Below are positions 5,826-41,185 of a stretch of 59,474 nucleotides of DNA, piece after piece; the first letter of the stretch is position 1, and each line of letters starts with the position of its first letter. Under the pieces are notes generated by a model. The model ran no database searches, had not been told where the DNA came from, and saw nothing but the letters and a program-made list of their open reading frames with translations. The translations under genes were made by a program, and so were the position numbers. The stretch comes from Candidatus Binatia bacterium (GTDB taxonomy: Bacteria > Desulfobacterota > Binatia > Bin18): assembly GCA_022824615.1 (NCBI GenBank), contig JAJDZM010000225.1, positions 1-59,474 of the forward strand. The letters run 5' to 3'.

Positions 5826-7685
5826 CTACTCCAACCCCAGCTCTTTCTTCTTTGCCTCGGAGATGATGCCGTCCTTATCCCAGCCTCGCAGTTCGTAATA
5901 CTCGGGCAGCATCTCACCCAGTCGGTTGACCTCGCCCTTGGCCGGGCCGGACGGGATGGGCTCTTCCAGAATCCGCTTGGGCAGGGTGTCGTCCTTGCCG
6001 GTGAAGCCCGCCCGTTCGTTCCACAGCCGCTCCAGGTTCCAGATCCGCTCCCCAATGTGGACCAGTTCTTCCAGCGTATACGGCACGCCCGTGGCGGCCG
6101 ACAGTTGGGGCAGCATCTCCTCCAGACCTACGCCGAAAGTGAGGAATTGGCACAGGCCGGTGGCATCAACGGTTGAGGTGGCGTCCTGGAAGATTTTAGT
6201 AATCTCCGCCTTCTCTTCTGTGGCGCGCGGGTCCATCTGACGCGGCAGGCCCAGAATTTCGGCCGCCACCGTATAGGCTTTCAAGTGACACGCCCCGCGG
6301 TTGGAAGTTGCATAGCCCAGGCCCATGCCCTGAATGGCGCGGGCCTCGTACGCGGCAAACTCCTGACCGCGGACGCCCATGAAGAACTCGGGTCGGCCCA
6401 GCGTCTCGGTCATGCGTTTGGAGCCTTCGGCCACGGCATCACCAAAGCCCTGCCGGTAGGCAGTCTTCTCGGCCATGGCGACGAGGGCTTCCGCGCTGCC
6501 GAACTCCAGCGGAATCTCGGTTTCGTCTTGGCTGACCACACCCTTCTCGAACAACTCCATGGCCGCGGCTACGCTGGCCCCAAAGCTGATGGAATCCATA
6601 CCCAGGTCGTTACACAGCCAGTTGGCCTTGATCAGCGCGTCCAGGTCGCCCACGCCACACTCCGAGCCCATGGCCCACGCCGCTTCGTACTCGGGGCCCT
6701 CGCCGGCGATTTTCCAGTTTTGCGGATTGGTGGTGACCGAGTATTTCGAGGAGGCCTCGCCCGGCAGAGTGCTGACTCGCCCACAGGCAATGGTACAGGA
6801 AAAACAGGCTTTATTGGCGACCAGGCGGGTTTCGGTCAGGGTTTCACCGCTGATGTTTTCGGCTTCATCAAAGACGGTCTGCTGATGGTTGCGGGTCGGT
6901 AGCGCGCCGTGCTCGTTAATCACGTTGACCAGCACTTCGGTGCCGTACATGGGCAGGCCCTCGGCGGTCACGGGCGACTGCCGCAGCTTTTCCTTCATGG
7001 CCCACTGGCCTTCCAGATATGCCTGCGGGTCTGCCAGAGAGACCCCGCCGGTGCCGCGCAGGGCAATGGCCTTGAGATTTTTGGAGCCCATCACCGCGCC
7101 CACGCCGGACCGGCCCGCGGCCCGGTGCAGGTCGTTCATGATACAGGCAAAGCGTACCAGGTTTTCTCCGGCCGGGCCGATGCTGGCAATGATGGTGTCG
7201 GGTACGCCGAGTTCGGTGCGGAGGGCCTCTTCGGTCTGCCAGACCGTCTTACCCCACAGGTGGGTCGCCTCGCGCAGTTCCACCCGGTCGTCATAGATCC
7301 ACAGATAGGACGGCTGCGCGGCCTTGCCCTCCAGGATGATCATGTCATAGCCGGCGAATTTCATCTCCGGCCCCCAGAAGCCGCCGGAATTCGAGGTGGT
7401 AATGGCGTTGGTCAGTGCGCCCTTGGTGACGACCATATAGCGTGAGCCACAGGAGGCGTTGGTGCCGGTCAGCGGCCCGGTGGCAAAGATCATCTTGTTT
7501 TCCGGGCTAAGCGGATCGACGCTGGGGTCCATCTCTTCGGAGAGATATTTGACGCCGAGCCCGCGACCGCCGACATAGTCTCTGGCCCATTCGGCGTTCA
7601 GCGGTTCCTTGGTGATGGTGCCGGTGGTCAGATTGACGCGCAGGACAGTCCCGGTCCAGCCGTGCATTGTGTTCGTCTCGCTCAT
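5826..7685 (-). CDS. aor: Tungsten-dependent aldehyde:ferredoxin oxidoreductase
   Basis: GGRGLG, SIGPAGE, AGRSGVGAVMGSKNLKA, CFSCTIAC, EYE, GMDSIS and RGACH motifs. Start moved to ATG 7685 (MSETNTM), which has an AGGAGG RBS. Confidence 0.92.
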   Translation of the reverse strand: MSETNTMHGWTGTVLRVNLTTGTITKEPLNAEWARDYVGGRGLGVKYLSEEMDPSVDPLSPENKMIFATGPLTGTNASCGSRYMVVTKGALTNAITTSNSGGFWGPEMKFAGYDMIILEGKAAQPSYLWIYDDRVELREATHLWGKTVWQTEEALRTELGVPDTIIASIGPAGENLVRFACIMNDLHRAAGRSGVGAVMGSKNLKAIALRGTGGVSLADPQAYLEGQWAMKEKLRQSPVTAEGLPMYGTEVLVNVINEHGALPTRNHQQTVFDEAENISGETLTETRLVANKACFSCTIACGRVSTLPGEASSKYSVTTNPQNWKIAGEGPEYEAAWAMGSECGVGDLDALIKANWLCNDLGMDSISFGASVAAAMELFEKGVVSQDETEIPLEFGSAEALVAMAEKTAYRQGFGDAVAEGSKRMTETLGRPEFFMGVRGQEFAAYEARAIQGMGLGYATSNRGACHLKAYTVAAEILGLPRQMDPRATEEKAEITKIFQDATSTVDATGLCQFLTFGVGLEEMLPQLSAATGVPYTLEELVHIGERIWNLERLWNERAGFTGKDDTLPKRILEEPIPSGPAKGEVNRLGEMLPEYYELRGWDKDGIISEAKKKELGLE

Positions 7686-7696
7686 GCGTTGCCTCC

Positions 7697-8173
7697 TTAC
7701 TCGTCCTGCATATGTTGAAAGCCCCGGTTGACTTTGTCCGCCCAACTGGCCAGCCAGTCCGGCTGATCCATATCCACATATTCGAGTGCGCCGGTCGGGC
7801 AGGACTTGACGCACGCCGGGTCACCGCCACACAGGTCACACTTGAAGGCTTTATGGCTATCCGGGTTATAGAACATGGTGCCGTAGGGGCAGGCCACCGT
7901 GCAGACTGCACAGCCGACACACACATCGTCCATCACGACCTTCGCGTCCGTGTTCGGGTCAATGCCGATCGCATTCACCGGACAGGCCGTCAGGCACCAG
8001 GCTTCATCGCACTGAAAGCAGGTATAGGGCGCGTAGACGGCCTGCTCGTCAAATATATGGACGCGGATAACGGAACGCGACGGCTGAAAGGTCCCGGTTT
8101 GAACAAAGGCACAAGCCAACTCGCACTGAATGCAGCTTGTGCATTTCTCGGTAATCACGCGGAGTTGTTTCAT
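7697..8173 (-). CDS. 4Fe-4S dicluster electron-transfer subunit (AorA/DmsB-like)
   Basis: Four Cys clusters (CTSCIQCELAC, CFQC...CP, CVGCAVCTVACP, CDLC...CP). Start at ATG 8173 with AGGAGG RBS. Confidence 0.9.
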   Translation of the reverse strand: MKQLRVITEKCTSCIQCELACAFVQTGTFQPSRSVIRVHIFDEQAVYAPYTCFQCDEAWCLTACPVNAIGIDPNTDAKVVMDDVCVGCAVCTVACPYGTMFYNPDSHKAFKCDLCGGDPACVKSCPTGALEYVDMDQPDWLASWADKVNRGFQHMQDE

Positions 8174-8240
8174 ACGGTGTTGTCCCTCCTGCACTTCCTC
8201 TAACAGATTCGTCCGAAGAATGCCACAAAAGTCGGTCGGT

Positions 8241-8261
8241 GGTAGTGCGTCAATTTGAAAT
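8241..8261 (+). repeat. Terminal inverted repeat (left)
   Basis: GGTAGTGCGTCAATTTGAAAT is the exact reverse complement of 10872..10892. Confidence 0.93.
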
Positions 8262-9072
8262 TCGTTTCTTGTACCGGCCTCGCGGCCCAGGCTCAGGGAA
8301 TGCCTGTTCAACCAACTCAACTATCCAGTCCACATCATGTAGAACGAGATCAATTCCTGCGGCCATCGCCGGCGTCATCCGCACCGACTGGTGTATCCGA
8401 CAAAAATTGTAGTACAGGAAATACAAGCAGATCATCGCCACATGATTCGCGGCCTTCTTGGAGAAGGCATTAGTCTTGCGCGTGAACCGGCGCATACACA
8501 TGCGCATCGTCAGGTTTTGCCGTTCGACATAAGCAGTTGAAATATGGTTGGGGTCAGGATTGCCCGACACCACCAGCGTGTCGCCAAAGCCTAAGTCCTG
8601 GGCATAATCTACGCCCCGTCCAAAGGCGTCGGAAATCGCCTCGGCATAGGCAGCATATCCGTCTGTCGTCAGTTGGCAGGGACCCGCCAGCCTCCCATTC
8701 AGATCGCGCAGAAAGGTGGTGGCGTATGTCAGACTCCGACCGCCCACCAAATAGGCAATGATGAGTTTGCTGTCGGCATCCAGGGCCGTCCATGTCCAGA
8801 TACTCCCGGCGTCGGAGGGAGCGGTTGGCATCTTGGCGACCTGCTTGGCCTTGGCGTACACATAGGACCATATCTCGTCGCACTGTATGCTCGGCCTCAA
8901 CATTGCGGAGATGCACATCATGGTAGGCAGCAGCAACTTTCCCCGCCTGTATGAGGAGGGTCTTTATGGTATTGAACGCCACACCAGTGATACGGTTGGT
9001 CGCCCGCATACTAGCCCCGTCCAATAGGGTCCGCAGCACCTGGACCCGCTTGTCATGAGGAATCCGGTTCAT
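8250..9072 (-). pseudogene. IS1-family transposase, frameshifted near 8887
   Basis: The N-terminal HTH part (MNRIPHDKRVQVLRTLLDGASMRATNRITG) is in ORF 8554..9072. The catalytic part (QCDEIW, WTWTALD, TTDGY, STAYVERQNLTMR, RRFTRKTNAFSK) is in ORF 8250..8936, a different frame. Confidence 0.85.
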
Positions 9073-14103: not shown

Positions 14104-16404
14104 CTACGCTCCACCTGATCCGTTGGTCCCAGGTGAGCCGTTGGTTCCGTTGCCGCGCGTAGCCCAGAAAATCCGCTCGGGATTCATGGGCAGCTCGTAT
14201 AGCCGGGTACCGGTAGCACGGTAGATTGCATTGGCCAGGGCTGCGCCCGGTGGCACGATGGGCACTTCGCCTACGCCGCGCAGACCGTAGGGGCCTTCAG
14301 AGGCCGGGACTTCGGTCAGGACGGTTTCGATCATGGGCAGGTCCAGCGCCACCGGACAGCGATAGTCCAGCAGGCTGGCATTTTTCAGCTCGCCGTTATC
14401 AAAGATATATTCCTCATTCAGAGCCCAGCCGATGCCCTGCACAGCTCCCCCCTGGATCTGACCTTCAACCTGGGTTGGATTGATGGCCTTGCCCACATCC
14501 TGGAAGCAGGTATAGCGCAGGATGGTCACCTTGCCCGTCTCTGGGTCGATCTCAACATCCGCGACATGGGCGGCATAGGCGTGGGCCGGCTGCATCCGGG
14601 TGGTGCTGCCCTTGCCGATGATCGGGCCGCTGCCCCAGGCCACACTCTCGCGGGCCAGTTCGGACAGGCTGACTTCGTTCCGGGTATCATTCTTGGCCCG
14701 GAACCGTTTAGCCTGATACTCGACCTCATCGACCGACACCTTGAGCTTTTCCGCGGCCCGCTCTTTGAGTTGGGTCAATACATCCTGACTGGCCTGGTGG
14801 GCGGCGGCACTCATTGTGTAGGTAATTCGACTGCCGCCGCTCAGGTCGGCAAACGGCGCGCTGTCGGTATCACCCACTGTGATAGTGATATCTTGGGGAT
14901 CAAGCTGGAGTTCATCGGCCACCATCTGGGAAATCGTGGTACGGGTGCCGGTCAGGTCCACGGTCCCTACAAAAATCGAGGCGGTGGCGTCCGGGTTGAT
15001 CTTGACCTCAGCACTCGATGTGAAAGAGCCGCCGATCCAGTAACCCAGGGCCAGACCCCGGCCGCGGTGGGGGCCCTCCAGCGGCGTGGTCCAGCACGGA
15101 TGCGTCTCGATCTGTTTCAGCATCTCGGTCAGGCCGATACGGTTGAGCGGCATACCCAGGGGCAACGTATCGCCTTCTTCGGCGGCGTTTTTCTGACGGA
15201 ACGTCAGCGGGTCGACGCCGATCTCGTCCGCCAGGGCATCCATCAGCGCTTCAACTGCAAAGGCCGCTGGTGTGCCGCCAGGGGCGCGGTAGGCTTGAAC
15301 ACGGGGCTTGTTGGTCAGTACGTCAAACCCTTCGGCAACCATATTATCCAATTTATACGGGGCGAGACCAACCAGCAGGCCGCGGGCGACCGGTGAGCCG
15401 GGAAAGGCACCGGCATCGTAGCGCATGGTCGTCGTCAGCGCGGTAATCTTCCCGTCCTTGGTCGCGCCGGCCTTCACGGTGATGACCGCGGGTGCCCCTG
15501 GGCCGGTTGCGCGCAGCACTTCTTCCCGGGAGACCACGAGTTTGACCGGCCGGCTGGTCTTTTGGGCCAGTACAATAGCGGTGGGTTCAAACAGCGCCAG
15601 GGCTTTGCCGCCAAATCCGCCTCCGATCTCCATGGGTACGACCTTGAGTTGGCTGGCGGGGAGACCGAGCAGGGTCACGAGCTGGGTGCGGACGGTGAAA
15701 TGTCCCTGGGCCGAGGTCCACAAGGTGACCCGGCCGTTGGGCTCGACCCGCGCGGCGCAGGCCTGGGGTTCCAGATAGCCCTGGTGGACCATCTGGGTCG
15801 TATACGTTTTCTCAACAACCGCGTCGGCCACGGTGAACCCGGCCTCAACATCGCCCCGGGTATAGACCATATGGGTGGAAACATTACTCGGCTGGTCGGA
15901 CCTTTCCTGGGTTGCCTCTTCGAGTGTGTGCAGGTCTTCGTGCACGAGCGGGGCGTCAGGCTGCATGGCCTGGAGGACGTCTTCCACGACCGGCAGGGGT
16001 TCGTAGTCAACGTCAACCAGTCCGGCCGCTTCCTCGGCAATAAACGGGTCGGTGGCGGCCACCGCGGCCACGACCTGACCGTGATAGCGAACCTTGTCCG
16101 AGGCCATGACGATCTCGCGGATGGCGCTCATATCGATACTGACTTCTCCCACCAGGGGGGCGGTGGCGCCTTTTGGCAGAGAGGGCAGATCGTGCGCGGT
16201 AATGACGGCTTTCACGCCGGGCAGCGCTTTGGCCCGGCTGGTATCAATATGTTTGATGCGAGCGTGGGCATGCGGGCTACGGACGAGCTTCGCCCACAGC
16301 ATGCCGGGCAGGTCGAGGTCGGCCCCATAGGTCGCCTTGCCCGTGACCCGCTCCGGGGCGTCAACCTTGGCCAAAGACGTTCCAATCACACTATACTCAG
16401 CCAT
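14104..16404 (-). CDS. Xanthine dehydrogenase family molybdopterin-binding (large) subunit
   Basis: KVDAPERVTG, HQGYLEP, IGGGFGGK, AYRAPG, GGSR, GQIQGG and GVGE motifs. Confidence 0.92.
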   Translation of the reverse strand: MAEYSVIGTSLAKVDAPERVTGKATYGADLDLPGMLWAKLVRSPHAHARIKHIDTSRAKALPGVKAVITAHDLPSLPKGATAPLVGEVSIDMSAIREIVMASDKVRYHGQVVAAVAATDPFIAEEAAGLVDVDYEPLPVVEDVLQAMQPDAPLVHEDLHTLEEATQERSDQPSNVSTHMVYTRGDVEAGFTVADAVVEKTYTTQMVHQGYLEPQACAARVEPNGRVTLWTSAQGHFTVRTQLVTLLGLPASQLKVVPMEIGGGFGGKALALFEPTAIVLAQKTSRPVKLVVSREEVLRATGPGAPAVITVKAGATKDGKITALTTTMRYDAGAFPGSPVARGLLVGLAPYKLDNMVAEGFDVLTNKPRVQAYRAPGGTPAAFAVEALMDALADEIGVDPLTFRQKNAAEEGDTLPLGMPLNRIGLTEMLKQIETHPCWTTPLEGPHRGRGLALGYWIGGSFTSSAEVKINPDATASIFVGTVDLTGTRTTISQMVADELQLDPQDITITVGDTDSAPFADLSGGSRITYTMSAAAHQASQDVLTQLKERAAEKLKVSVDEVEYQAKRFRAKNDTRNEVSLSELARESVAWGSGPIIGKGSTTRMQPAHAYAAHVADVEIDPETGKVTILRYTCFQDVGKAINPTQVEGQIQGGAVQGIGWALNEEYIFDNGELKNASLLDYRCPVALDLPMIETVLTEVPASEGPYGLRGVGEVPIVPPGAALANAIYRATGTRLYELPMNPERIFWATRGNGTNGSPGTNGSGGA

Positions 16405-16415
16405 GCTGTCCCTCC

Positions 16416-16892
16416 TTAGGCGGTTTGTGAAAGCGCCTGTGACGCGGCCTGAATGGCGCGCACGATTTTGTCATAGCCCGTGCAGCGGCACAGGTTGCCG
16501 GAAATCGCCAGACGAATCTCGGGTTCGCTCGGGTTGGGGTTGCGCTCCAATAATGCCTTGGCCGACATGATAAAGCCCGGCGTACAAAACCCGCACTGCA
16601 ACGCCCCGTGTTCAATAAAGGCCTGCTGTACGGGGTGAAGGGTGCCCTCAGCCGCAACCCCTTCGACCGTGGTCACGTCCGCGCCCGCGGCTTCTACGGC
16701 GAACACCAGGCAGGCATTGACGACAGCGCCGTTCAAGACGACCGTACACGCCCCGCAGTTGCCATTGCCGCAGCCTTCCTTGGGCCCCATATGGCCCAGC
16801 TTGTAGCGTAGGGTGTCCAGCAGCGTTTCCCGGGTATCGACCAGCGCGGCGTGCGGCTCGCCGTTGACGTTCAGTTCAATCGCCTGCTTCAT
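16416..16892 (-). CDS. Xanthine dehydrogenase family 2Fe-2S (small) subunit
   Basis: KEGCGNGNCGACTV, QCGFCTPG and GNLCRCTGY motifs. Confidence 0.93.
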   Translation of the reverse strand: MKQAIELNVNGEPHAALVDTRETLLDTLRYKLGHMGPKEGCGNGNCGACTVVLNGAVVNACLVFAVEAAGADVTTVEGVAAEGTLHPVQQAFIEHGALQCGFCTPGFIMSAKALLERNPNPSEPEIRLAISGNLCRCTGYDKIVRAIQAASQALSQTA

Positions 16893-17764
16893 GATGCCTC
16901 TCCCTTGGCTCTCTCCAGTGCCTTGCCCAGCGTGCGCCGCGTCAGCACTTTGACCAATTCAATCCGATAGGCTGCCGAGCCACGCACATCGGAGATCGGA
17001 CTGGCAGCCTGGGAGGCCAACTCCCCGGCCTGGGCAATCGTTGTGTCGTCCAGAGACTGGCCCGCTAAAAACGCTTCGGCTTCTTTTGCTCGGACGGGAG
17101 TGGGCGCAACCGCAGCGAGCACGATACGGGCCTGCTCACAGGTACGAGTGTCCGGGCTGAGCTGGACAAACGAGCCCACCCCAGCCACCGCAATATCCAT
17201 CTCTTCGCGCGGGATAAAACGCAGATAGGCCGCCCCGGAATGGGGTGGGGGGGGTGGCAGGACAATCTCGACCAGGACTTCACCTTTTTCCAGTACGGTC
17301 TGGCCCGGTCCGACAAAGAAGTCTTCTGACGGAATCTCCCGCCGTCCGCCTGGTCCGGCAATCACCAGCGTCGCTCCATACGACACCGCCGGCGGAACGG
17401 CATCTGCGGATGGAGCAGCGTTGCAAAAGTTGCCGCCCAGCGTAGCGCGGTTCTGTATTTGATACGAGCCGATCAGGGCGCAGGCCTCGGCCAGGGCCGG
17501 GTAGTGGACACGCACCGGCTCGAACTCGGCGATCTGCGTACACGACACGGCCGCACCAATGTGGAGCCCGGCCTCGTAGGAGAGGACATTGAGCTCGGGA
17601 ATTTTTTTGACATCAACCACCAGAGCCGGGCTGTGGCGGTTCTCCTTCATCTGGGTAATGAGGTCGGTTCCGCCCGCCAGGGGCCGCGCCTCATCACTCG
17701 CCTCGGCCAGCAATGCCACGGCGTCTTGTAGATTCTGCGGAGCTGCGTACTCGAATGCGTCCAC
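16889..17764 (-). CDS. Xanthine dehydrogenase family FAD-binding (medium) subunit
   Basis: AGGTDL, QIQNRATLGGN and DVRGSAAYR motifs. Start moved to GTG 17764 (RBS AAGGAGG). Confidence 0.9.
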   Translation of the reverse strand: MDAFEYAAPQNLQDAVALLAEASDEARPLAGGTDLITQMKENRHSPALVVDVKKIPELNVLSYEAGLHIGAAVSCTQIAEFEPVRVHYPALAEACALIGSYQIQNRATLGGNFCNAAPSADAVPPAVSYGATLVIAGPGGRREIPSEDFFVGPGQTVLEKGEVLVEIVLPPPPPHSGAAYLRFIPREEMDIAVAGVGSFVQLSPDTRTCEQARIVLAAVAPTPVRAKEAEAFLAGQSLDDTTIAQAGELASQAASPISDVRGSAAYRIELVKVLTRRTLGKALERAKGEAS

Positions 17765-18073
17765 ACTCAGGCCCTCCTTCTCCTTGGACACCAGTACTCC
17801 TATCTCTTGAAGCAGGCGGAGATCAAGGGTAAAGGGCCAGCGGGAGGGGTTGCACAGAAAGGGGCGGCTTCGGAGTGGTCTTGGAGTCAGCACCAAAAAA
17901 ATCGATGAACGGAGGGACGCTGGCCCGGACACACTCGTGCACCGATGCAGAACGCCTGCTACTATCCGTGGGGATCGGCAGGACCGGTCCGGTTCGCCTT
18001 CACCGGATTTCTTCTGCCGGCGGCGGCGTCCGCCCCGGTTCGCTCGTATCGAAGACCATCCGCAGGAGCGGTC

Positions 18074-18829
18074 ATGCCGCCGGATCGAGCCATTGCGTTA
18101 TTCTACGAGCTGTTCAGTGGGCTGCCCCGGCAGGGACCGGGGACAGCGGCGAGCACGCGTCGAGCCCTCGGGCTGGTGCCGGACGTCGGGCCGCGGACCC
18201 GCGTGCTCGATGTCGGCTGCGGCACCGGTGCCCAGACCTTGGTTCTGGCGGACAGCTCGCCGTCACGCATCGTCGCCGTCGACAACCACCCCCCGTTCAT
18301 CGACGCGCTGAACCGCAAGGCGCACGAGTTGGGCATCGCCGATCGACTGGAAGCTCGCGTGGCGGACATGCGCCGACTCGACTTCGCCGCGGGTTCCTTC
18401 GACCTGCTCTGGTGCGAAGGCGCCATCTACAACATGGGTGTCGAAGCGGGCTTGCGCGCCTGGCGCCGGTTGCTCCGACGCAACGGGCATGTCGCGCTGA
18501 CAGAGGTGTCCTGGCGCAAGCCCGAACCGCCCGCCGCATGCGCAGCGTTCTGGAACCTGGAGTATCCGGCTATCCGCGACACCTCCGCGCTCCTGGAAGC
18601 CATCGAAGCGTGTGGCTATGAGACGGTCGGGCACTTTCCGCTCCCCGCGTCCGCATGGTGGGACGACTACTATCGACCACTGCAAGACAACGTGACCGCA
18701 TTCCGCAAGCGTCACCACGACGCGCCAGACGCACAGGCGTTGGCGGAACGGTGCCAGAGGGAAATAGATATCTGGCATGCCTACTCGGAGTTCTACGGCT
18801 ACGAGTTCTTTGTGCTCCGTGCCCGTTGA
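18074..18829 (+). CDS. Class I SAM-dependent methyltransferase
   Basis: LPRQGPG, VLDVGCGTG and FDLLWCEGAIY motifs; ATG 18074 has an AGGAG RBS. Confidence 0.88.
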   Translation: MPPDRAIALFYELFSGLPRQGPGTAASTRRALGLVPDVGPRTRVLDVGCGTGAQTLVLADSSPSRIVAVDNHPPFIDALNRKAHELGIADRLEARVADMRRLDFAAGSFDLLWCEGAIYNMGVEAGLRAWRRLLRRNGHVALTEVSWRKPEPPAACAAFWNLEYPAIRDTSALLEAIEACGYETVGHFPLPASAWWDDYYRPLQDNVTAFRKRHHDAPDAQALAERCQREIDIWHAYSEFYGYEFFVLRAR

Positions 18830-18901
18830 ATCGATCCCAACGCGCCCGGGTCGACCGCTACGCGGCGTGACGACAGCGCACAGCGCGGCCCGGGCGCTCG
18901 C

Positions 18902-20311
18902 TCATGAGCCGTCACCGCCGAGAAGTATTTGCACCTCGCGCGCGGTGCGGAGGCCACTCTCTATCGCGCCGTCGATAAACTCGTGCCAGCCGTTGGCGGT
19001 GATTGAGCCCCCGAAGAAGAGACGGCCTTCAGGCTGCTGCAGAGCCGGCAAGCGGCTGAGTTGTCCAACGCGGTACGCGGGCCATGCGCCGCGTGCAAAA
19101 GGATCTGCTGCCCAGTCGTAGCCGCGTGTGTCGATCACGTCGACGTCGCCGAACAGGCGGCGCACTTCGGCGGTGATTTGCGCTTTATCGTCCACATCGA
19201 TGGTCGATGCGCGGGCCACGGTGATAGAGAGAATCGTGCCGATGTCATCGCCGTAAGTGAGCGTTTGCACCCAGTTGAGCGGCTGCGCTTCGTCGCAGAA
19301 CGCAAATACGCGGCCCAGGTTCTCGCGCACGTGCACGAACAACTTCGCCCCTTTCGAGATCATGCCCTCGTTGATCCAGTTTTGCTTTGCGAGCGAGAGG
19401 GCGGGATCGAAATCAACGTCGGTATAGCAATTGAGTGGTAAGGTAATAACGGCAGCTTTGGCACTGACCGCGTTTCCGTCCCGGGTATGAAGACGAACCG
19501 CACCGATGTTGTGTTCGATGCGTTCAACCGCGGCGTTCAGGCGTACCTTGCAGCTGCTATCCTCAATGAGGCAGGTGATGAGACCAAGGGTGCCAGATTC
19601 TATGCGATAGTGGGTTTCGGCGTCGGCGAAGGCGTCGTAATTCCAGCCGCCGGCGGCGTAGAGCTTGAGCATGCCGGGCAGGCCAAATTGTGAGGTGACA
19701 GCACCGCCATATAAAGTCATGAAGGAATTGAGTTGGATACGCTGCGTGTCGGTGAGATCCAGTTCCGCAATGCGATCGGCGCACGAGAGTTCGTCGAGTT
19801 CCAGAACCTTCGGGTTATAGAGCGGCTCGTACGGCCGCGGGAACAGTTGCCACACGTCATGGCAGAATTTCTCGAAACCGTCGCGAATGTCCCTGAGGAA
19901 TTGATCCGGTGGAACAACGCTTGCCACGCCGTCGTTGCCCATCACGCGGGTCTCGTCAAGGCCGGTAAACGGATCTTCGATTACACCGAGACCGTAGCGG
20001 CGCATTTCCGCCCACACGTGCGGTTGCAGCCAGTGCACCCACGCGCCGCCAAGTTCGACCGGCCGACCCGCAAACTCCGCGGTGTACGTACGCCCGCCGA
20101 GTCGATCGCGCGCCTCGAGGAGAACCACGCGCAATCCTGCCTGACCAAGTTCGCGGGCCGCTGTCGCGCCGGCAAAGCCACCGCCAACGATGGCGACGTC
20201 GAAGTCCGTGTCCTTACGGTCCGCGGTGGTTGCGAGCGAACTGTCTGCTGCGTCAGGCGAGGTGGAGGCTTCAGGCCGCCGGTGTGGACCGGGTGTCCAC
20301 TTCGTGCTCAC
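18902..20311 (-). CDS. Flavin amine oxidase, close homolog of nicotine oxidoreductase NicA2
   Basis: GGGFAG and EARDRLGGRT FAD motifs. Segments GGAWVHWLQPHVWAEM.RYGL, GGWNYDAF..ETHYRI, NLGRVFAF.DE.QPLNWVQT and GTILSIT match NicA2 as I recall it. Confidence 0.85.
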   Translation of the reverse strand: MSTKWTPGPHRRPEASTSPDAADSSLATTADRKDTDFDVAIVGGGFAGATAARELGQAGLRVVLLEARDRLGGRTYTAEFAGRPVELGGAWVHWLQPHVWAEMRRYGLGVIEDPFTGLDETRVMGNDGVASVVPPDQFLRDIRDGFEKFCHDVWQLFPRPYEPLYNPKVLELDELSCADRIAELDLTDTQRIQLNSFMTLYGGAVTSQFGLPGMLKLYAAGGWNYDAFADAETHYRIESGTLGLITCLIEDSSCKVRLNAAVERIEHNIGAVRLHTRDGNAVSAKAAVITLPLNCYTDVDFDPALSLAKQNWINEGMISKGAKLFVHVRENLGRVFAFCDEAQPLNWVQTLTYGDDIGTILSITVARASTIDVDDKAQITAEVRRLFGDVDVIDTRGYDWAADPFARGAWPAYRVGQLSRLPALQQPEGRLFFGGSITANGWHEFIDGAIESGLRTAREVQILLGGDGS

Positions 20312-20369
20312 TGCTACTCCCGTTCGTCGATTATGTCCTCAACATGGAGCAGTTCCGTATTGCGGCAGG

Positions 20370-20891
20370 TCAGACTGGTCTATCCCCCACTCCGCCCTGA
20401 AAATCGCCTAGAGACAAGGTAAAGCGCTCCTGCATCCGAATATCATCCTCCGTCCCCATGTCTCGGGTCATGCAGCAATACTCCAGGGAAATATTGTTGG
20501 GATCTCTGAAGTAGATGGATTGAGCGGCATCGTGATGCACGATGTTCGAGACCTGCACCCCTTTGGCCAGGAGTTCCGCACGCTTCGCTTCCAGGGCTGC
20601 GACCGACCCGGCTTCAAAGGCAAAATGATAAAACGCGCTGGGCACCCCCAGTCCTTGATTGATACCCGCGTCGTACTCCGCAGGAATCCCCGGAACTCCT
20701 TGCGCTTCCATAAAGGCCAAGAGCTGGTCGCGGCCGATATGAAAGAACACATGCCGAATCTGCCCGCCTTCCTTGATCCTGAGCATATCACAGCGCACCG
20801 GCGTGAACCCCAGTACGTTTTCGTAGAAGTCGCACGTTTTGTCCAAGTCCAGGGTTGACAGTCCGATGTGGGAGAAACCCTTGTGTGACAT
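20370..20891 (-). CDS. VOC/glyoxalase family protein
   Basis: FSHIGL..., FYENVLG, HFAF and SIYFRDPNNISLE motifs; start at ATG 20891. Confidence 0.85.
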   Translation of the reverse strand: MSHKGFSHIGLSTLDLDKTCDFYENVLGFTPVRCDMLRIKEGGQIRHVFFHIGRDQLLAFMEAQGVPGIPAEYDAGINQGLGVPSAFYHFAFEAGSVAALEAKRAELLAKGVQVSNIVHHDAAQSIYFRDPNNISLEYCCMTRDMGTEDDIRMQERFTLSLGDFQGGVGDRPV

Positions 20892-20964
20892 ATCGAATCC
20901 TCCTTGTTGGATGGTCTTTCTATAGCTCAGCCGCACGTTCTTTACCAACACTACCCCAGTGAAA

Positions 20965-21310
20965 GCAGCTACGAGGCAAGGGGCCGGGCCGGATGGCGAC
21001 CGACGAAATCATGGCGCTCACTCGGGGGCCGCGCCCGTGAACGCCGTTCTGGTGGATAGCAAGGCCGATTGAAGACCTGGATGAGGCCCTCCCACCCGCG
21101 GTGTTTTGACGCGTCCCCTTGCCCTGGGAAGCCGCTTTTCTGGCCGGGAAGAGTTTTCTTGCCTATCGGAAACGAGGCGGCCGAAAGCGCTCCCCTTTAC
21201 CGGACTTCTATATTGGAGCCCACGCTGCGGTCGCAGGGATGCCTTTGCTCACCAGAGACGTGGCTCGCTTTCAGACAAGTTTTCCCACTGTCCAACTGAT
21301 CGCTCCCTAA
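20965..21310 (+). pseudogene. Decayed vapBC-type toxin-antitoxin locus (antitoxin tail plus broken PIN toxin)
   Basis: ...LRGKGPGRMATDEIMALTRG antitoxin-like tail overlaps GTG 21037 (VNAVLVDS). A deletion/frameshift and an in-frame TGA follow, then a PIN C-terminus WEAAFLAGK...PLPDFYIGAHA...LLTRD. Confidence 0.75.
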
Positions 21311-21413
21311 GTAAGAACGTGTGGACAATTCGGGTCGGGCCTGATTAAGTAACCCGGTTGTGGAGGGGAGGAGGCGTCCGAGTACGAAAACCTTGCGTAA
21401 GGAGGAAAGATTC

Positions 21414-22199
21414 TTGGCAAACTGGACTGAACAGAAGGCCCATATAGCTGAAGCTGAATTAACGCTCATTAAGGGCGGAGCAGGTAAACCCTTGTTAATG
21501 CTGCATGATGAGCTGGGATTCCCTGGTTGGGTGAAATGGAATGACGAGCTTGCGGCGGAGCACGCCTTTGTGATTCCGCTCCAGCCGGGTTTTGGCAAAA
21601 CCCCACGTCTGGGGTGGGTTCGGAGTTTCCGCGACCTGGCCGGCCTGTATAGCATGGCGGTTAGAGAAATGGGGCTCGACCCGGTGGACGTCATTGCATT
21701 CTCAGCCGGTGGATTCATTGCCGCTGAAATGGTCGCGGCCGATCCCAAGATTTTTGACCATTTGATTCTGGTGGGCCCGATGGGGCTCAAGCCCGAGAAG
21801 GGCGAAATCTGGGATATCTTCCCGGTGACGATTCGGACCCATTTGCGGCGAACAGTAGCGGACCCTGGTACTGCTGAGTTCGGAAACATTTACGGTGGCG
21901 AGATGACGCCGGAGCAATTCGAGGCGTTCGAAGATGCCCGAGCAGAAAGCGCGCGCATCGGCTGGGAGCCATATATGCATAATCCCAGCCTGCCCTATCT
22001 GTTGCGTGGCGTGAAAAACGTGCCCACCCTCCTGATCCGCGGCTCCGAAGACCAGATCGTGCCAGCGGGCTGCATTGCCACCTATACCAAAGCCATTGAC
22101 GGGGCCAAGGCGGTGGAAATGGCCAATGTCGGCCATCGTCCGGAAATCGAGAATTCCGTCGAATTTGTCAAAATCGTGCAAGACTTCCTGAAAGAGTAA
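21414..22199 (+). CDS. Alpha/beta fold hydrolase
   Basis: LLMLH, PGFG, AFSAGG elbow, GSEDQIVP and GHRPE motifs; TTG start after AAGGAGG. Confidence 0.85.
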   Translation: MANWTEQKAHIAEAELTLIKGGAGKPLLMLHDELGFPGWVKWNDELAAEHAFVIPLQPGFGKTPRLGWVRSFRDLAGLYSMAVREMGLDPVDVIAFSAGGFIAAEMVAADPKIFDHLILVGPMGLKPEKGEIWDIFPVTIRTHLRRTVADPGTAEFGNIYGGEMTPEQFEAFEDARAESARIGWEPYMHNPSLPYLLRGVKNVPTLLIRGSEDQIVPAGCIATYTKAIDGAKAVEMANVGHRPEIENSVEFVKIVQDFLKE

Positions 22200-23763: not shown

Positions 23764-24795
23764 ATGAGTGATGCTCACGAACATGATACTGGCGCGGCCT
23801 TTCAGCAGCGCCAGTTGACACCCGACCGGAACCGTGAACGCGAGATTCAGGTCAAGGCGATCGAAGCCCTGCTTGCCGAGAAAAATTTTGTTTCCACCGC
23901 ACTGCTCGATACCGTTCTGGACTCGTATGAAAACGATATCGGACCGTTGAACGGCTGTCGGGTCGTTGCCCGGGCCTGGACGGACCCCGCCTATAAGGCC
24001 CGTCTGCTTGAGAATGGCACCGCCGCCATAGCCGAGCTGGGCTTTGGCGGCTTGCAGGGTGAGCATCTGGTTGTGGTGGAGAATACGCCCCGGACGCATA
24101 ATGTGATCGTCTGCGCGTTATGCTCGTGCTACCCCTGGCCGGTTCTGGGTCTGCCGCCGTTTTGGTATAAGAGCCAGTCGTATCGCTCCAGGGTCACCGG
24201 CCGGCCTCGTGAAGTGCTCCGGGAGTTTGGGCTTGAACTGGACGAAAACATCCAGATTCAGGTCTGGAACAGTACCTTTCAGACCCGCTATATGATCCTG
24301 CCGGAGCGGCCGTCCGGTACGGAGCAGATGACGCTCGATGAACTCGTATCCATTGTTACGCGGGATGCGATGATCGGGGTGGCGCGGGTCGAGCCTGAGA
24401 AAAAACAGCCGTCCGGCCTTTCTCAGAGACAGGTGTCTGATATGCAGGGCCCTGCCGCTCTGCCCCGACGGAGTGGCGAACTCCAGTTCCAGGACCCTTG
24501 GGAAGGCATTGCTTTTGCCCTGGCGGTCGCCCTATGCGAACAGGGTCTGTATGCCTGGTCCGAGTTTCAAGAGGGCTTGATTGCCGAGGTTGCCAGCGCG
24601 GACCGGCAGGCACCTGAGACGCGACCAACGTATTATGAAAGCTGGATGGCCGCCTTTGAAAAGCTGCTCGACGCTAAAAACATACTGGCGCAGACCGCAA
24701 TCAATCGCCATGTCCGGCAGATCAAACAGAGCCTCTCTCTGCGCCGCACCCGTCTACCGTTTGGCATCCGGCCCTGGCCGGATGATGAAGGTTAG
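23764..24795 (+). CDS. nthA: Nitrile hydratase alpha subunit fused to an NHase accessory/activator (P14K/NhlE-like) domain
   Basis: Residues ~1-210: [36 protein letters not shown] and VTRDAMIG. Residues ~225-320: [25 protein letters not shown]...[13 protein letters not shown]. The frame is continuous. Confidence 0.85.
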
Positions 24796-40106: not shown

Positions 40107-40571
40107 ATGACCATGTTTCCTCGTGCTGATCTTGCTCTCTACAATCGTGATGGACAGCTCATTGCTGTTGTCGAAGTGAAGAACAAGTTAGGAACATCAG
40201 CCCTTTGGGCCGCTCAGTTGCGCCGTAATATTCTTGCCCACGGAGGTCTTCAGAACGCGCCCTATTTCCTTCTTATGACACCGGATCGAATATACCTCTG
40301 GAAGGATGCTGGGACCGACCCTGTCTCTGTCTTTCCAACCTATGAAAGGGTAGCTCAAGACATCTTTTCATCCTATTTTGATAGATCGGCTATAGAGCCG
40401 AGTGAGGTAAGTAGTGCCGCGTTTGAGCTTATTGTGACAGCATGGCTAGGGAATCTTGTCAGGACGGCAGACAAGCCGGAGGATTTGACGAGTGAAGTCT
40501 CCTGGCTTGTTGAGTCCGGATTGCTCGGTGCACTTCAAGACGGGCGTCTTGAGTACGAAGTTGCCGCGTGA
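40107..40571 (+). CDS. Hypothetical protein with N-terminal PD-(D/E)XK-like motif
   Basis: ADLALYNRDGQLIAVVEVK; GTGA overlap with the next gene. Confidence 0.6.
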   Translation: MTMFPRADLALYNRDGQLIAVVEVKNKLGTSALWAAQLRRNILAHGGLQNAPYFLLMTPDRIYLWKDAGTDPVSVFPTYERVAQDIFSSYFDRSAIEPSEVSSAAFELIVTAWLGNLVRTADKPEDLTSEVSWLVESGLLGALQDGRLEYEVAA

Positions 40572-41185
40572 ATATCTACGTTGAAACGAATTTCGTTCTT
40601 GAATTGGCTTTGGAGCAGGAGCAACGTGAAAACTGTGAGCAGATCCTTTCTCTGTGCGAGAAGGGCAAGGCTCAACTCATCATTCCTGCCTACTCTTTTG
40701 CTGAGCCTTCCGAGACGCTTACGCGGCATCACGGGGAACGAGAGCGGTTGAAAATAGCTCTTGACCGGGAATTGCAGCAACTCGCGCGTACCGAATTATA
40801 TAGGAGTCGGCTGAGTGATCTACAGAGTTTGACAACTCTCCTCATAGACAGTGCGGACGATGAAGCAAAACGATTTGACGCCACTCGCTCTCGGCTTCTC
40901 AAAATTTCCGAAATCATCCCCCTCACCGCGCAGATTTTGGGCGAAGTGGCTCGTAATCAAAAGGTACACGACCTCTCTCCTCAGGACGCTCTGGTCTATA
41001 CGTCCGTCCTCCAACATCTCAAGCAAGGTGTTTCAGCCCAGGGGTGTTTCTTAAACAAAGATAGAGATTTTAATGATCCGGATATTGTTGAAGAACTGAG
41101 CACGTATAATTGTAAGTTGTTCCCTCGATTCGATAGCGGCTATCAATTTATCCTGCACGCGATTTCTCAAGCTTCGCCTCTCTGA
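40568..41185 (+). CDS. PIN domain protein
   Basis: IYVETNFV, SFAE, DALVY and NKDRDF acidic motifs. Confidence 0.75.
   Translation: MNIYVETNFVLELALEQEQRENCEQILSLCEKGKAQLIIPAYSFAEPSETLTRHHGERERLKIALDRELQQLARTELYRSRLSDLQSLTTLLIDSADDEAKRFDATRSRLLKISEIIPLTAQILGEVARNQKVHDLSPQDALVYTSVLQHLKQGVSAQGCFLNKDRDFNDPDIVEELSTYNCKLFPRFDSGYQFILHAISQASPL

Follow-up and report, generated by a model that had tools for sequence, protein, structure and literature searches.

How flavoenzymes come to switch between O2 reactivity and O2 avoidance is a mechanistic puzzle for which the nicotine-degrading enzyme NicA2 represents the model case, and NicA2's poor O2 reactivity restricts its use as a drug. A Candidatus Binatia locus, analyzed within a stretch of 59,474 nucleotides (the window), encodes a NicA2-like protein and raises the question of which acceptor reoxidizes its flavin. 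A preliminary description of this DNA had proposed a close NicA2 homologue that naturally carries oxidase-type substitutions and acts as a cytoplasmic oxidase for nicotine-like alkaloids.

The oxidoreductase gene and its surroundings

The gene (Table 1) is preceded by a GGGAG Shine-Dalgarno sequence, starts with GTG and ends at a stop codon. PF01593 (Amino_oxidase) matched its product with 168.1 bits at a cut-off of 19.8, covering residues 46–460, and the GxGxxG dinucleotide-binding motif near the N-terminus is present as VGGGFAG. In a phmmer search against PDB, the top seven matches were chains of Pseudomonas putida S16 NicA2 (2e-182 to 1.2e-180, ~605–610 bits), followed by NctB (6cr0, 415 bits) and Pnao (7e7h/7u6l, 288 bits). 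The likeness to NicA2 claimed beforehand was thus upheld among solved structures (E ~1e-181), and the alignment suggested at that time yielded 56% identity and a numbering offset of 17 (NicA2 = query + 17; NicA2 numbers are used for residue positions below unless stated otherwise). All motifs named were recovered, namely ETHY (E249/T250), ILSIT (T381), GAW (W427), VELGGAW, TDVDFDP and GWHEFIDG, the latter standing where NicA2 has GWHANIDG; Leu at position 104 and Asp at position 317 were likewise confirmed. Pnao was rejected as nearest relative based on its score (288 versus 607 bits for NicA2), and a Pnao-type second amine oxidoreductase was not found in the 89.6%-complete genome. The lysine beside flavin N5 (K340 in NicA2; role as given in PMC12224317) is retained. 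Judging by a core dN/dS of 0.147, calculated from 55 pairs of 11 orthologues, the gene is functional; its frame is intact in all 10 carrier genomes of the genus and in the orthologous locus L014.

Table 1. Features of the locus, with positions in the window and the basis of each assignment.
Feature	Position	Strand	Basis or remark
FAD-dependent amine oxidoreductase gene, flavin amine oxidase family	18902..20311	-	469 aa, 56% identity to NicA2
Vestigial Tat leader, residues 1-35	20207..20311	-	Length and position match sister Tat signals; aligned N-termini
Leu87 codon (NicA2 F104; same as laboratory-selected F104L)	20051..20053	-	Leu in 26/26 Binatia-type sequences
Asp300 codon (NicA2 G317; same as G317D of variant v321)	19412..19414	-	Acidic residue common in Tat-bearing relatives
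Lys323 codon (NicA2 K340, conserved lysine next to flavin N5)	19343..19345	-	Kept in 26/26 orthologues
Phe325 codon (NicA2 Y342)	19337..19339	-	Phe in 26/26 Binatia-type sequences, Tyr in 35/35 Tat-bearing relatives
Leu351 codon (NicA2 H368)	19259..19261	-	Binatia-type: Leu 25/26, Phe 1/26; His in 35/35 Tat-bearing relatives
Glu444-Phe445 codons (NicA2 A461-N462)	18977..18982	-	Usual Glu-aromatic pair of the family rather than a special change
Accessory cassette, ~3.5 kb (methyltransferase, oxidoreductase, VOC and ~400 bp upstream non-coding)	17828..21295		Blastn borders, gene content
VOC gene (glyoxalase/dioxygenase superfamily), 173 aa	20370..20891	-	PF00903; ATG at 20891, AGGAGG Shine-Dalgarno
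Gene for a class I SAM methyltransferase (orientation convergent to the oxidoreductase gene)	17945..18829	+	Pfam methyltransferase domains
Three-subunit xanthine-dehydrogenase-family molybdo-enzyme, outside the cassette	14104..17932	-	Pfam
Molybdo-enzyme FAD subunit	16889..17932	-	Pfam
Molybdo-enzyme 2Fe-2S subunit	16416..16892	-	Pfam
Molybdo-enzyme MoCo subunit	14104..16404	-	Pfam

The gene resides in an accessory cassette that separates the molybdo-hydroxylase operon from a divergent operon containing an alpha/beta-hydrolase. In blastn comparisons with genomes devoid of the oxidoreductase, homology ends at 17827–17841 and restarts at 21296–21316, and in locus L042 the flanks are only 17 bp apart. 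The cassette is carried by 10 of the 28 genomes of one sponge-associated Candidatus Binatia genus; oxidoreductase and VOC gene are cleanly missing at all five examined loci of hydroxylase-bearing, oxidoreductase-less genomes. Convincing flanking repeats or mobile-element scars were not detected at the borders, the sole flanking pair being a 17-nt, 82% inverted match inside the neighbouring genes. The promoter scan returned no promoter-like site, the terminator scan two terminator-like sites, both intragenic and fewer than in shuffled sequence, and the Rfam scan of 17800–21500 no match.

Upstream of the oxidoreductase gene, on the same strand and separated by 58 bp, lies the VOC gene, a second, cassette-specific copy whose ~70% identical paralogue is located elsewhere (e.g., G000:C86). 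Copies sharing 95–97% identity adjoin the oxidoreductase in eight of the nine other carriers, the copy in G184 being truncated, so that oxidoreductase and VOC paralogue travel together as a small cassette within the genus. The VOC protein falls into a conserved family of very large size whose names are uninformative, and its only PDB match is a weak one to a glyoxalase (1.8e-8). Kinship with the VOC genes that lie close to the L013 homologue was considered and rejected, as these are unrelated. The methyltransferase represents a variable passenger of the cassette, occurring in two of the nine loci L001–L009 (L003 and L007).

The three-subunit molybdo-hydroxylase mentioned in the preliminary description is indeed present, whereas the pathway that it was supposed to share with the oxidoreductase is suggested by position only. 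An orthologue of at least 90% identity occurs in 23 of the 28 genus genomes, 13 of which do not possess the oxidoreductase; since the hydroxylase is found with or without the cassette, adjacency is no proof of a pathway link. The molybdo-enzyme scores under every NCBIfam equivalog cut-off; its PDB matches are led by 4-hydroxybenzoyl-CoA reductase alpha, CoxL and Pno (7dqx), and on plasmids the best relative is an XDH-family protein of generic type from Sinorhizobium (46% identity).

Contigs originating from two RNA libraries (X19, X20) of one study and 94–96% alike cover 19240–20086, and one RNA-library contig spans 20218–20924, bridging the junction between VOC and oxidoreductase genes. The segment 17878–19239 is essentially uncovered in the X19 and X20 contigs, which is uninformative about expression. 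Altogether, these contigs provide a weak hint of expression; contaminating DNA may be their source.

Export leader, cytochrome partner and phylogenetic placement

Within the N-terminal leader of the Binatia protein, the RR pair is kept at residues 11–12 of its own sequence and is followed by an acidic, polar stretch in place of the hydrophobic h-region. The best 12-residue hydropathy window of Binatia leaders ranges from -0.05 to 0.32 compared with 1.35–2.03 in 14 of 15 tabulated Tat-bearing relatives (the fifteenth, P0034, reaches 0.70 with a leader clipped by the regular expression); the values for the Binatia protein itself and for NicA2 are -0.05 and 2.03, respectively. Moreover, Binatia leaders contain three to four acidic residues after RR, versus none or one in Tat-bearing relatives, and RR has changed to RG in the orthologues L004 and L008. 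Leader dN/dS amounts to 0.59, as against 0.147 for the core, pointing to relaxed selection. These sequences show that the Binatia lineage has lost the export signal. The absence of a Tat-type hydrophobic signal had already been stated beforehand, and the cytoplasmic location put forward along with it is supported by the decayed leader. Since TatC is encoded by the host genome, the organism has a Tat pathway.

A cytochrome partner was not found either. In agreement with the earlier observation that no cytochrome c gene adjoins the oxidoreductase, no ORF featuring CxxCH was found between positions 8000 and 31000 of the window; furthermore, tblastn searches with six CycN-like queries gave no match in the whole 89.6%-complete genome, and a CycN-like match was absent from all 11 Binatia-type loci. 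Directly downstream of the homologue, a CycN-like ORF is present in nine of ten non-Binatia loci, corresponding to approximately six of seven distinct loci once the duplicate pairs L012/L017, L013/L015 and L020/L023 are each counted singly.

The relevance of both features is illustrated by the FAOs of Akram et al. 2025 (PMC12224317). In the data given there, all FAOs tested that lack both signal peptide and adjacent CytC reach kox(O2) values of 1.8e3 to 5.6e4 M-1 s-1, and the value for NicA2 is 27 M-1 s-1. There are exceptions, however: the FAO of Erythrobacter sp. 1414, possessing a signal and no adjacent CytC, is slow with O2 (kox(O2) 470 M-1 s-1). According to the authors of PMC12224317, oxidase or dehydrogenase function is not reliably predictable from sequence, which counts against reading the Binatia protein as an oxidase.

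Based on the phylogenetic tree, the Binatia trio is nested in a 10-row clade (SH-aLRT 100), the other seven members of which all feature Tat motifs, and also falls inside a 20-row clade (SH-aLRT 99) with 17 Tat-bearing members. Its tree neighbours are Tat-bearing homologues of uncultured Gammaproteobacteria. By visual inspection, RR followed by a hydrophobic stretch is present in all 39 N-terminally complete matches among P0004–P0044, a count from which P0011 and P0012 were left out as they start inside the Rossmann fold. Membership in the NicA2 group was not retained: the protein belongs to the well-supported 20-row subclade, comprising uncharacterized enzymes outside NicA2/Nox, although the tree backbone between subclades is weak (SH-aLRT 86–88). 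The oxidoreductase is accordingly nested, without signal and without adjacent cytochrome c, among dehydrogenases having both, a situation like that of NctB; its probable ancestor is a dehydrogenase of the NicA2/NctB clade that was exported via Tat and coupled to cytochrome c. Most likely, it adds another case to the dehydrogenase-to-oxidase switches of a kind already described.

Residues at O2-related positions and in the substrate pocket

Several residues differ from NicA2 at positions tied to O2 reactivity. PMC10611581 gives F104, A107, D130, H368 and N462 as hot spots and F104L, A107T, D130S, T319I, L449V and N462S as the changes of the engineered variant v320. In printed alignments, the engineered crystal variant 8dq7 shows L104, T107, I146, D317, R368, V449 and S462 in place of the wild-type NicA2 residues. 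Compared with v320/v321 (PDB 8dq7/8dq8), the Binatia protein has Leu104 in common with both and Asp317 with v321, and position 368 is changed as in v321; it differs in showing A107, D130, L368 and F462, where the variants feature T107, S130 (v320), R368 and S462. The claim that engineered-variant states occur naturally in this protein thus applies to 104L and 317D, which are identical, whereas Phe462 differs from the engineered residue (S or V).

The designation of these changes as oxidase-type had to be restricted in a similar way. Leu104 matches the laboratory selection, whereas the states at 317 and 462 represent the majority state of Tat-bearing relatives. Among nine Tat-bearing sisters, position 317 is occupied by D (3), E (3), S (2) or A (1), Glu461 is invariant, and all nine have F or H at 462. 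Residues 317 and 462 show no association with Tat loss, and the odd ones out in the family are NicA2's own Gly317, Ala461 and Asn462. Several Tat-bearing relatives with acidic 317 and Glu461-aromatic 462 even have a CycN-like gene immediately downstream. As the states at 317, 461 and 462 are usual in Tat-exported, cytochrome-c-linked relatives, they predict nothing, and the decayed leader is the better evidence for an oxidase. Two of the three residues first flagged as oxidase-type therefore correspond to the ancestral family state, which is cautionary even if the enzyme should prove ordinary.

More informative are positions 104, 342 and 368. F or Y occupies position 104 in eight of the nine Tat-bearing sisters, and all three genuine Tat-less lineages carry an aliphatic residue there. 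Only six of 184 highly conserved columns are changed in the Binatia lineage, 342 and 368 among them. Fig. 4 of PMC10611581 places Y342 at the putative O2 tunnel, the residue also serving there as 19F-NMR probe site, and the H368 hot spot of the same publication was changed by directed evolution (H368R). By our alignment, the H368 column furthermore equals Glu328Tyr of Zhang et al. 2025, taking Node numbers as NicA2 numbers minus 40 as deduced from four concordant columns (68/108, 90/130, 300/340, 328/368). Being lineage-fixed at published O2-tunnel positions, F104L, Y342F and H368L probably help the reaction with O2. At A107 and D130, which belong to the five published hot spots, the protein retains the wild-type state, and this counts against an oxidase; Ser130 occurs in 32 of 49 natural Tat-less relatives, and the Binatia protein does not possess it. 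The enrichment of changes at hot positions was evaluated post hoc and gave P 0.005 only with Y342, added after its substitution had been noticed, and P ~0.095 by hand estimate without it. An independent-pairs test of Tat loss versus residue state (p 0.5 to 1) was powerless with only three real losses, as three of the six losses called by regular expression (P0049, P0053, P0054) resemble lipoprotein signals that are incomplete at the N-terminus.

Regarding the substrate, the nicotine-pocket residues listed in PMC11481913 are Y214, L217, Y218, T381, W427, A461 and N462. Four of these seven (L217, Y218, T381, W427) are identical in the Binatia protein, Y214F is conservative, and A461E and N462F differ; W108, E249, T250 and W364 are also kept. 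The Node A ancestor of Zhang et al. shares 79% identity with NicA2 and is described as reacting poorly with nicotine, and an enzyme of 56% identity may therefore not accept it either. Nicotine may or may not be accepted as a substrate. It is unlikely to be the physiological one in a sponge-associated bacterium: the sequencing runs in which near-identical DNA occurs carry the label of sponge or marine metagenomes, a setting in which nicotine from tobacco is not to be expected. Literature addressing Binatia together with nicotine was not found.

Electron acceptor and known counterparts

With the export signal lost and no CycN gene found in the 89.6%-complete genome, the reduced flavin would have to be reoxidized by a cytoplasmic acceptor. 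Taken together, the sequence evidence makes it reasonably probable that the protein is a cytoplasmic, O2-using FAD amine oxidase for a nicotine-like cyclic amine, derived from a Tat-exported cytochrome-c dehydrogenase. By analogy with the chemistry of the family, the enzyme would take a hydride from the C-N bond of such an amine, probably N-methylated, and the resulting iminium would hydrolyze spontaneously. O2 is the most probable acceptor of the reduced flavin, yielding H2O2, and reoxidation is probably aided by the three substitutions lining the proposed O2 tunnel of NicA2.

Alternatively, a cytoplasmic amine dehydrogenase in which a non-oxygen acceptor such as ETF or a quinone has replaced the cytochrome c partner could account for the same losses. 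The 6-hydroxypseudooxynicotine dehydrogenase of Agrobacterium uses ETF. In the Binatia genome, ETF alpha and beta genes are located on C15 and C274, but neither cassette nor window contains an ETF or other carrier gene. D130 and A107 are in the dehydrogenase-type state and the Erythrobacter enzyme is slow with O2 in spite of having no adjacent CytC, whereas the FAOs tested that lack signal and CytC all show at least 1.8e3 M-1 s-1 with O2 (PMC12224317) and the lineage-specific changes sit at O2-tunnel positions; a non-oxygen acceptor is accordingly regarded as unlikely. The idea of a decaying relic whose function vanished along with export and cytochrome partner draws on the accessory nature of the gene, the relaxed selection on the leader and the truncated VOC copy in G184. 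It is very hard to reconcile with the constrained core, the intact frames and the retention of catalytic lysine and FAD motif, and is given hardly any credence.

Closest to the original proposal is a dedicated nicotine oxidase owing its O2 reactivity to residues 104, 317 and 462 and sharing a nicotine-type pathway with the adjacent molybdo-hydroxylase. Leu104 and Asp317 equal engineered states and the pocket is largely NicA2-like; in addition, the natural enzyme Ncox has Tyr at the 462 position according to bioRxiv 10.64898/2026.08.27.747611, so that neither nicotine oxidation nor a fast O2 reaction conflicts with an aromatic residue at this place. Nevertheless, the states at 317 and 462 are shared with cytochrome-c-linked relatives, the protein falls outside the NicA2 subclade, the habitat offers no expected source of tobacco nicotine, the hydroxylase occurs in 13 genomes without the oxidoreductase, which itself lies within an inserted cassette, and no Pnao-like paralogue accompanies it in the 89.6%-complete genome. 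This variant is therefore considered quite improbable, and an O2-using oxidase for a nicotine-like cyclic amine remains the preferred reading.

Among known systems, NicA2 and Nox of Pseudomonas sp. HZN6 belong to the same fold family (~607 bits, 56–57% identity). With NicA2, the Binatia protein shares the K340-equivalent lysine as well as W108, L217, Y218, E249, T250, W364, T381 and W427; it differs in L104, F214, D317, F342, L368, F449, E461 and F462, in subclade and phylum, and in having a decayed leader and no CycN found in its genome where NicA2 features a Tat signal and the operon partner CycN. NctB, the (S)-6-hydroxynicotine oxidase of Shinella sp. HZN7, is described as an oxidase without signal or cytochrome c that arose inside the cytochrome-c dehydrogenase clade. 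Similar to the Binatia protein, NctB is aliphatic at 104 and shows neither His nor Glu at 368, and both are 46% identical (44–47% for NctB/NdpB). As NctB belongs to a separate clade, its Tat loss is independent of that in the Binatia lineage. NctB-type enzymes show E214, K250 and A364, with K340 replaced by Glu, where the Binatia protein has the NicA2-type residues F214, T250, W364 and K340. Membership in NctB/NdpB was rejected on these grounds (F/T/W/K versus E/K/A/(E or C) at 214/250/364/340, signature residues derived from our own alignment) and on its position outside that clade. Ncox of Peribacillus frigoritolerans NIC8, a natural O2-using enzyme as described, resembles the Binatia protein in its aromatic residue at the N462 position and differs in belonging to a Gram-positive clade and in having Phe for T381; identities to NicA2 are 56% for the Binatia enzyme, 43% for NctB and 36% for Ncox. 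The FAOs of Akram et al. lack the same two signposts, Tat and CytC, and are proven oxidases according to that report, the main text of which names no Binatia enzyme; distinct from them, the Binatia Tat leader is still recognizable as a vestige and the nearest characterized relative is NicA2.

A more far-reaching reading, which is put forward tentatively and is rather doubtful as a whole, regards this lineage as the third case in which a cytochrome-c amine dehydrogenase became an oxidase independently in nature, the closest one to NicA2, proceeding via 104, 342 and 368 and still taking nicotine or related alkaloids. If so, O2 reactivity would have been reached via tunnel positions also found by laboratory evolution and ancestral reconstruction. 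An oxidase accepting pyridyl-pyrrolidine or piperidine alkaloids would give biocatalysts for O2-driven nicotine degradation a template from nature and be a sign that sponge symbionts catabolize such compounds. The Binatia lineage represents a natural experiment close to NicA2, combining an unchanged fold and a pocket that is similar for the most part with a decayed signal and no cytochrome partner found; Leu104 together with 342 and 368, all at positions implicated in O2 access, provides a short list of residues for testing. Furthermore, it extends NicA2-like enzymes beyond Pseudomonadaceae, contrary to the statement in the abstract of PMC12272882.

Relationship to NicA2 and insertion of the oxidoreductase gene

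The oxidoreductase belongs to the flavin amine oxidoreductase (FAO) family (PF01593 domain, 168 bits) and keeps the catalytic lysine. Among all PDB chains, its top seven matches were NicA2 of Pseudomonas putida S16 and variants thereof (E 2e-182 to 1.2e-180), followed by NctB (415 bits) and, far lower, Pnao (288 bits), which confirms the close NicA2 homology stated in the preliminary description. All motifs named there were found, as were Leu104, Asp317 and Glu-Phe at 461-462, where NicA2 has Ala-Asn (NicA2 position = query position + 17). Identity amounted to 56% with NicA2 and 57% with Nox of strain HZN6. Searching 5.8 billion proteins yielded two clusters with 91-94% identity and, next, a set at 73-78%, and NicA2's own cluster was placed at 59%; the nearest genomes were nine Candidatus Binatia MAGs (91-93%). 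In a maximum-likelihood tree of 61 rows (quick search, SH-aLRT support only), the Binatia trio formed a long branch (0.34) nested in a 10-row clade (support 100), the remaining seven members of which carry Tat motifs, and also within a 20-row clade (support 99). NicA2 and Nox were located in a separate subclade, with a weak backbone (86-88) between subclades. On this placement, the protein is a close NicA2 relative outside the NicA2 group proper.

Positions of the oxidoreductase, its cassette and further features of the window
Feature	Position	Strand	Details
Oxidoreductase ORF	18902-20311	-	GTG start, GGGAG just before; 469 residues
Three-subunit molybdo-hydroxylase	14104-17932		generic xanthine-dehydrogenase-family; below every NCBIfam equivalog cut-off
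Inserted cassette	17828-21295		~3.5 kb; homology breakpoints against oxidoreductase-less genomes
AFOR pair	5826-8936	-	tungsten-type aldehyde:ferredoxin oxidoreductase (AFOR_N/AFOR_C, 662 aa) and 4Fe-4S ferredoxin-like gene
Nitrile hydratase ORF	23764-24795	+	343 aa; alpha subunit (TIGR01323, 277 bits) and C-terminal accessory-protein part (TIGR03889, 67 bits)
Low-GC segment	26539-30090	+	GC 0.49-0.51 against ~0.6; LmuB-like SMC ATPase (PADLOC 1.2e-25), 176-aa ORF, DUF4238 protein
PIN-domain pair	40107-41185	+	PIN_12-domain protein (205 aa), preceded by overlapping ORF (154 aa, no family match)
ATPase pair	55546-58244	+	ATPase with strong PADLOC matches to NsnB (2e-58), PDC-M55A, HEC-03B and AriA, followed by overlapping ORF (327 aa, no family match)

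Sampling of 201 genomes from the class (88 genera) revealed the oxidoreductase only in the window's own genus, in which 10 of 28 genomes carry it. The large subunit of the hydroxylase has an orthologue with at least 90% identity in 23 of the 28, including 13 without the oxidoreductase. Five genomes without the oxidoreductase lack the VOC gene as well, and their alpha/beta-hydrolase operon directly abuts the hydroxylase operon. Since DNA homology to oxidoreductase-less genomes breaks at 17827-17841 and restarts at 21296-21316, the stretch between is an inserted cassette; no flanking repeats were found at its borders. The VOC gene of the cassette is an additional copy (95-97% identity between carrier genomes), with a paralogue of about 70% identity elsewhere in most genomes, and a methyltransferase is a variable passenger (2/9 loci). 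In one genome (G184, contig C2, 264929-265273) a truncated cassette copy of the VOC gene covers residues 59-173 at 86% identity, next to an intact oxidoreductase.

A molybdo-hydroxylase does neighbour the oxidoreductase, as described previously, but a pathway shared by the two is not supported, given the occurrence of the hydroxylase in genomes lacking the oxidoreductase. The genus distribution and the insertion structure thus indicate that the adjacency is positional and does not speak for a common pathway.

Export leader, cytochrome partner and residues linked to O2 reactivity

By eye, an RR pair followed by a hydrophobic stretch was recognized in 39/39 N-terminally complete homologues from the search (P0004-P0044; P0011 and P0012, starting within the Rossmann fold, were excluded from this Tat count). 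The leader of the Binatia-type proteins, i.e., the window's protein and its orthologues, has the same length and retains RR, followed by a Glu/Asp/Ser/Pro-rich stretch with 3-4 acidic residues compared with 0-1 in Tat-bearing relatives; its best 12-residue hydropathy window reaches -0.05 to 0.32 compared with 1.35-2.03. The reported lack of a Tat-type hydrophobic signal therefore holds. Across 11 orthologues, dN/dS was 0.59 for the leader and 0.147 for the remaining protein, which is under purifying selection, and RR was changed to RG in two of them. TatC was found in the genome.

A small CycN-like cytochrome c ORF, resembling NicA2's partner, lies directly downstream of the homologue in 9/10 non-Binatia loci (exception: L010), corresponding to about 6/7 distinct loci once three duplicate pairs are collapsed. 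CycN-like matches were obtained for 0/11 Binatia-type loci, and the window's own flank, scanned for CxxCH ORFs only, contained none. Likewise, tblastn of the whole 89.6%-complete genome with six CycN-like queries gave no match, in agreement with the absence of an adjacent cytochrome c gene noted before. The leader vestige, the Tat-bearing relatives and their CycN-like downstream genes therefore indicate an exported, cytochrome-linked ancestor. As judged from leader composition and gene content, Tat function and the cytochrome partner have been lost, and the enzyme of this lineage is predicted to be cytoplasmic, without a CycN-type partner.

Hot spots of O2 reactivity published for NicA2 are F104, A107, D130, H368 and N462, and the engineered variant v320 carries F104L, A107T, D130S, T319I, L449V and N462S (PMC10611581). 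According to PDB alignments, the crystal variant 8dq7 has L104, T107, I146, D317, R368, V449 and S462. Positions 104, 317 and 462, named in the preliminary description as altered in engineered variants, are thus all changed in 8dq7, but Phe462 of the query differs from its Ser462. Moreover, residues 317 and 462 were correctly read there, but they carry no predictive weight as oxidase-type states: in the family alignment, Glu461 with F/H/Y at 462 and likewise acidic or polar 317 represent the majority state among Tat-bearing relatives, NicA2 is the outlier at 317 and 461-462, and Tat-signal loss is tracked by neither 317 nor 462.

An unbiased scan for columns that are conserved to 85% or more across 35 Tat-bearing relatives and fixed otherwise in the Binatia lineage returned 6 of 184 columns: S95A, V128I, Y342F, H368L, N391D and V467I. 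Y342 is depicted at the putative O2 tunnel and was used as an NMR probe there (PMC10611581), and H368 is one of the published hot spots. In our alignment, ancestral-node numbers of PMC12272882 equal NicA2 numbers minus 40 (columns 68/108, 90/130, 300/340 and 328/368 agree); therefore Glu328Tyr, which in ancestral nodes brought the active-site lysine out of a non-productive conformation (PMC12272882), falls on the 368 column. Binatia-type sequences have Leu104 and F342 in 26/26 and Leu368 in 25/26 cases. Among 118 homologues, position 104 is F/Y in 57/69 Tat-bearing proteins and M/L/I in 44/49 without the motif, and it is aliphatic in all three genuine Tat-less lineages. Against an oxidase reading, D130 and A107 are in the NicA2 wild-type state. 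Enrichment of the scan changes at implicated positions gave P 0.005 counting Y342, which was included post hoc, and P ~0.095 (hand estimate) without it; a paired test of residue state against Tat loss was powerless.

Proposed reaction and substrate

A lifestyle as cytoplasmic amine oxidase with O2-dependent flavin reoxidation is probable for this protein: the reduced flavin would be reoxidised by O2, and residues 104, 342 and 368 may contribute to this reaction. The proposed acceptor leans on published kinetics, in which all tested FAOs lacking both signal and CytC show kox(O2) of 1.8e3 to 5.6e4 M-1 s-1 and NicA2 27 M-1 s-1 (PMC12224317); the same authors consider oxidase prediction from sequence alone unreliable. 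ETF genes elsewhere in the genome are compatible with a cytoplasmic dehydrogenase passing electrons to ETF or quinone, which appears rather improbable. A decaying relic is contradicted by the dN/dS values and hardly credible. The natural cytoplasmic oxidase for nicotine-like alkaloids proposed earlier retains the predicted loss of Tat function and cytochrome partner and the fixed Leu104 in its favour, without residues 317 and 462; its strict reading as a nicotine-pathway enzyme is quite unlikely. The genome encodes only two other PF01593 proteins, and no Pnao-type partner was found because one is polyamine-oxidase-like and the other HemY-like.

Compared with the nicotine pocket (Y214, L217, Y218, T381, W427, A461, N462; PMC11481913), the query is identical at 4/7 positions; the replacement at 214 is conservative, and residues 461-462 differ. 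The query retains W108, E249, T250 and W364, which are replaced in 6-hydroxynicotine enzymes. The natural nicotine oxidase Ncox has Tyr at the 462 position (bioRxiv 10.64898/2026.08.27.747611), whereas Node A, a reconstructed enzyme sharing 79% identity with NicA2, reacted poorly with nicotine (PMC12272882). Neighbours of relatives include methylamine dehydrogenase genes (L013) and PQQ dehydrogenases (L011). We infer that the substrate is a cyclic amine resembling nicotine and probably N-methylated; nicotine is a possible substrate in vitro and an unlikely natural one.

The segment L013:7973-16460, near a Tat-bearing homologue and cytochrome c, encodes methylamine dehydrogenase heavy and light chains, an MFS transporter, two VOC proteins, an aminotransferase and an aldehyde dehydrogenase, a set that fits N-methylated amine catabolism.

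Repeated rise of oxidases within cytochrome-c amine dehydrogenase clades has been described (PMC12224317, PMC12272882), and the window's lineage is probably a new instance of this pattern. New are its closeness to NicA2 (56%, compared with 43% for NctB and 36% for Ncox), the still recognisable vestigial Tat leader, the very few lineage-specific changes overlapping published O2-tunnel positions, and the two-gene cassette in one Binatia genus. This cassette runs counter to a statement in PMC12272882 according to which Pseudomonadaceae are the only known carriers of NicA2-like genes and cytochrome c invariably accompanies them. A literature search combining 'Binatia' and 'nicotine' returned no paper; supplementary files of the key papers may hold such sequences.

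Occurrence, related loci and further genes of the window

Of the sampled window words, 97% were found in one DNA run labelled sponge metagenome, from which the window's sequence may originate. Contigs 90-96% alike were detected in a second sponge DNA run of the same study (X2), in two libraries (X19, X20) that a different study prepared as sponge metatranscriptomes, and in a marine metatranscriptome (X21), for which none of the pieces listed lies within the oxidoreductase gene. X19 contigs cover 19240-20086, and one (20218-20924) bridges the VOC/oxidoreductase junction; this is a weak hint of transcription because DNA can occur in such libraries. Binatota were described as sponge-associated aerobic methylotrophs (PMC8262859, PMC9999580).

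A Tat-bearing sister (P0008 type, ~71-75% identical to the query) at L010:2856-4277 has Leu104 and keeps Y342 and H368; no cytochrome c ORF occurs anywhere on its 10.4-kb contig, and its surroundings include two RidA genes and a xanthine-dehydrogenase-family enzyme with fused FeS and MoCo parts. This sister is a periplasmic oxidase candidate and may represent an intermediate state. At L012:3542-6616 and L017:4034-5544, a 403-aa homologue (P0011 type) starting in the Rossmann fold, without GxGxxG, precedes a CycN-like gene, representing a gene that is split or truncated, or else an assembly error common to both records; L012 also has a second amine oxidoreductase upstream, just 36% identical to the query.

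Within the window, the nitrile hydratase ORF belongs to a conserved alpha/beta-hydrolase and luciferase-like monooxygenase operon; no beta-subunit gene lies beside it, and NHase beta C-terminal domains occur on contigs C55 and C217. The AFOR pair adjoins an IS1-type transposase fragment and is conserved in related Binatia loci. The low-GC segment separates a CoA-transferase from a luciferase-like monooxygenase (spacing of about 860 bp between the two in L001) and may be a Lamassu-like defence insertion; a related SMC gene occurs in L044. Furthermore, the ATPase pair is a candidate two-gene defence system, and the PIN-domain pair resembles a toxin-antitoxin module.
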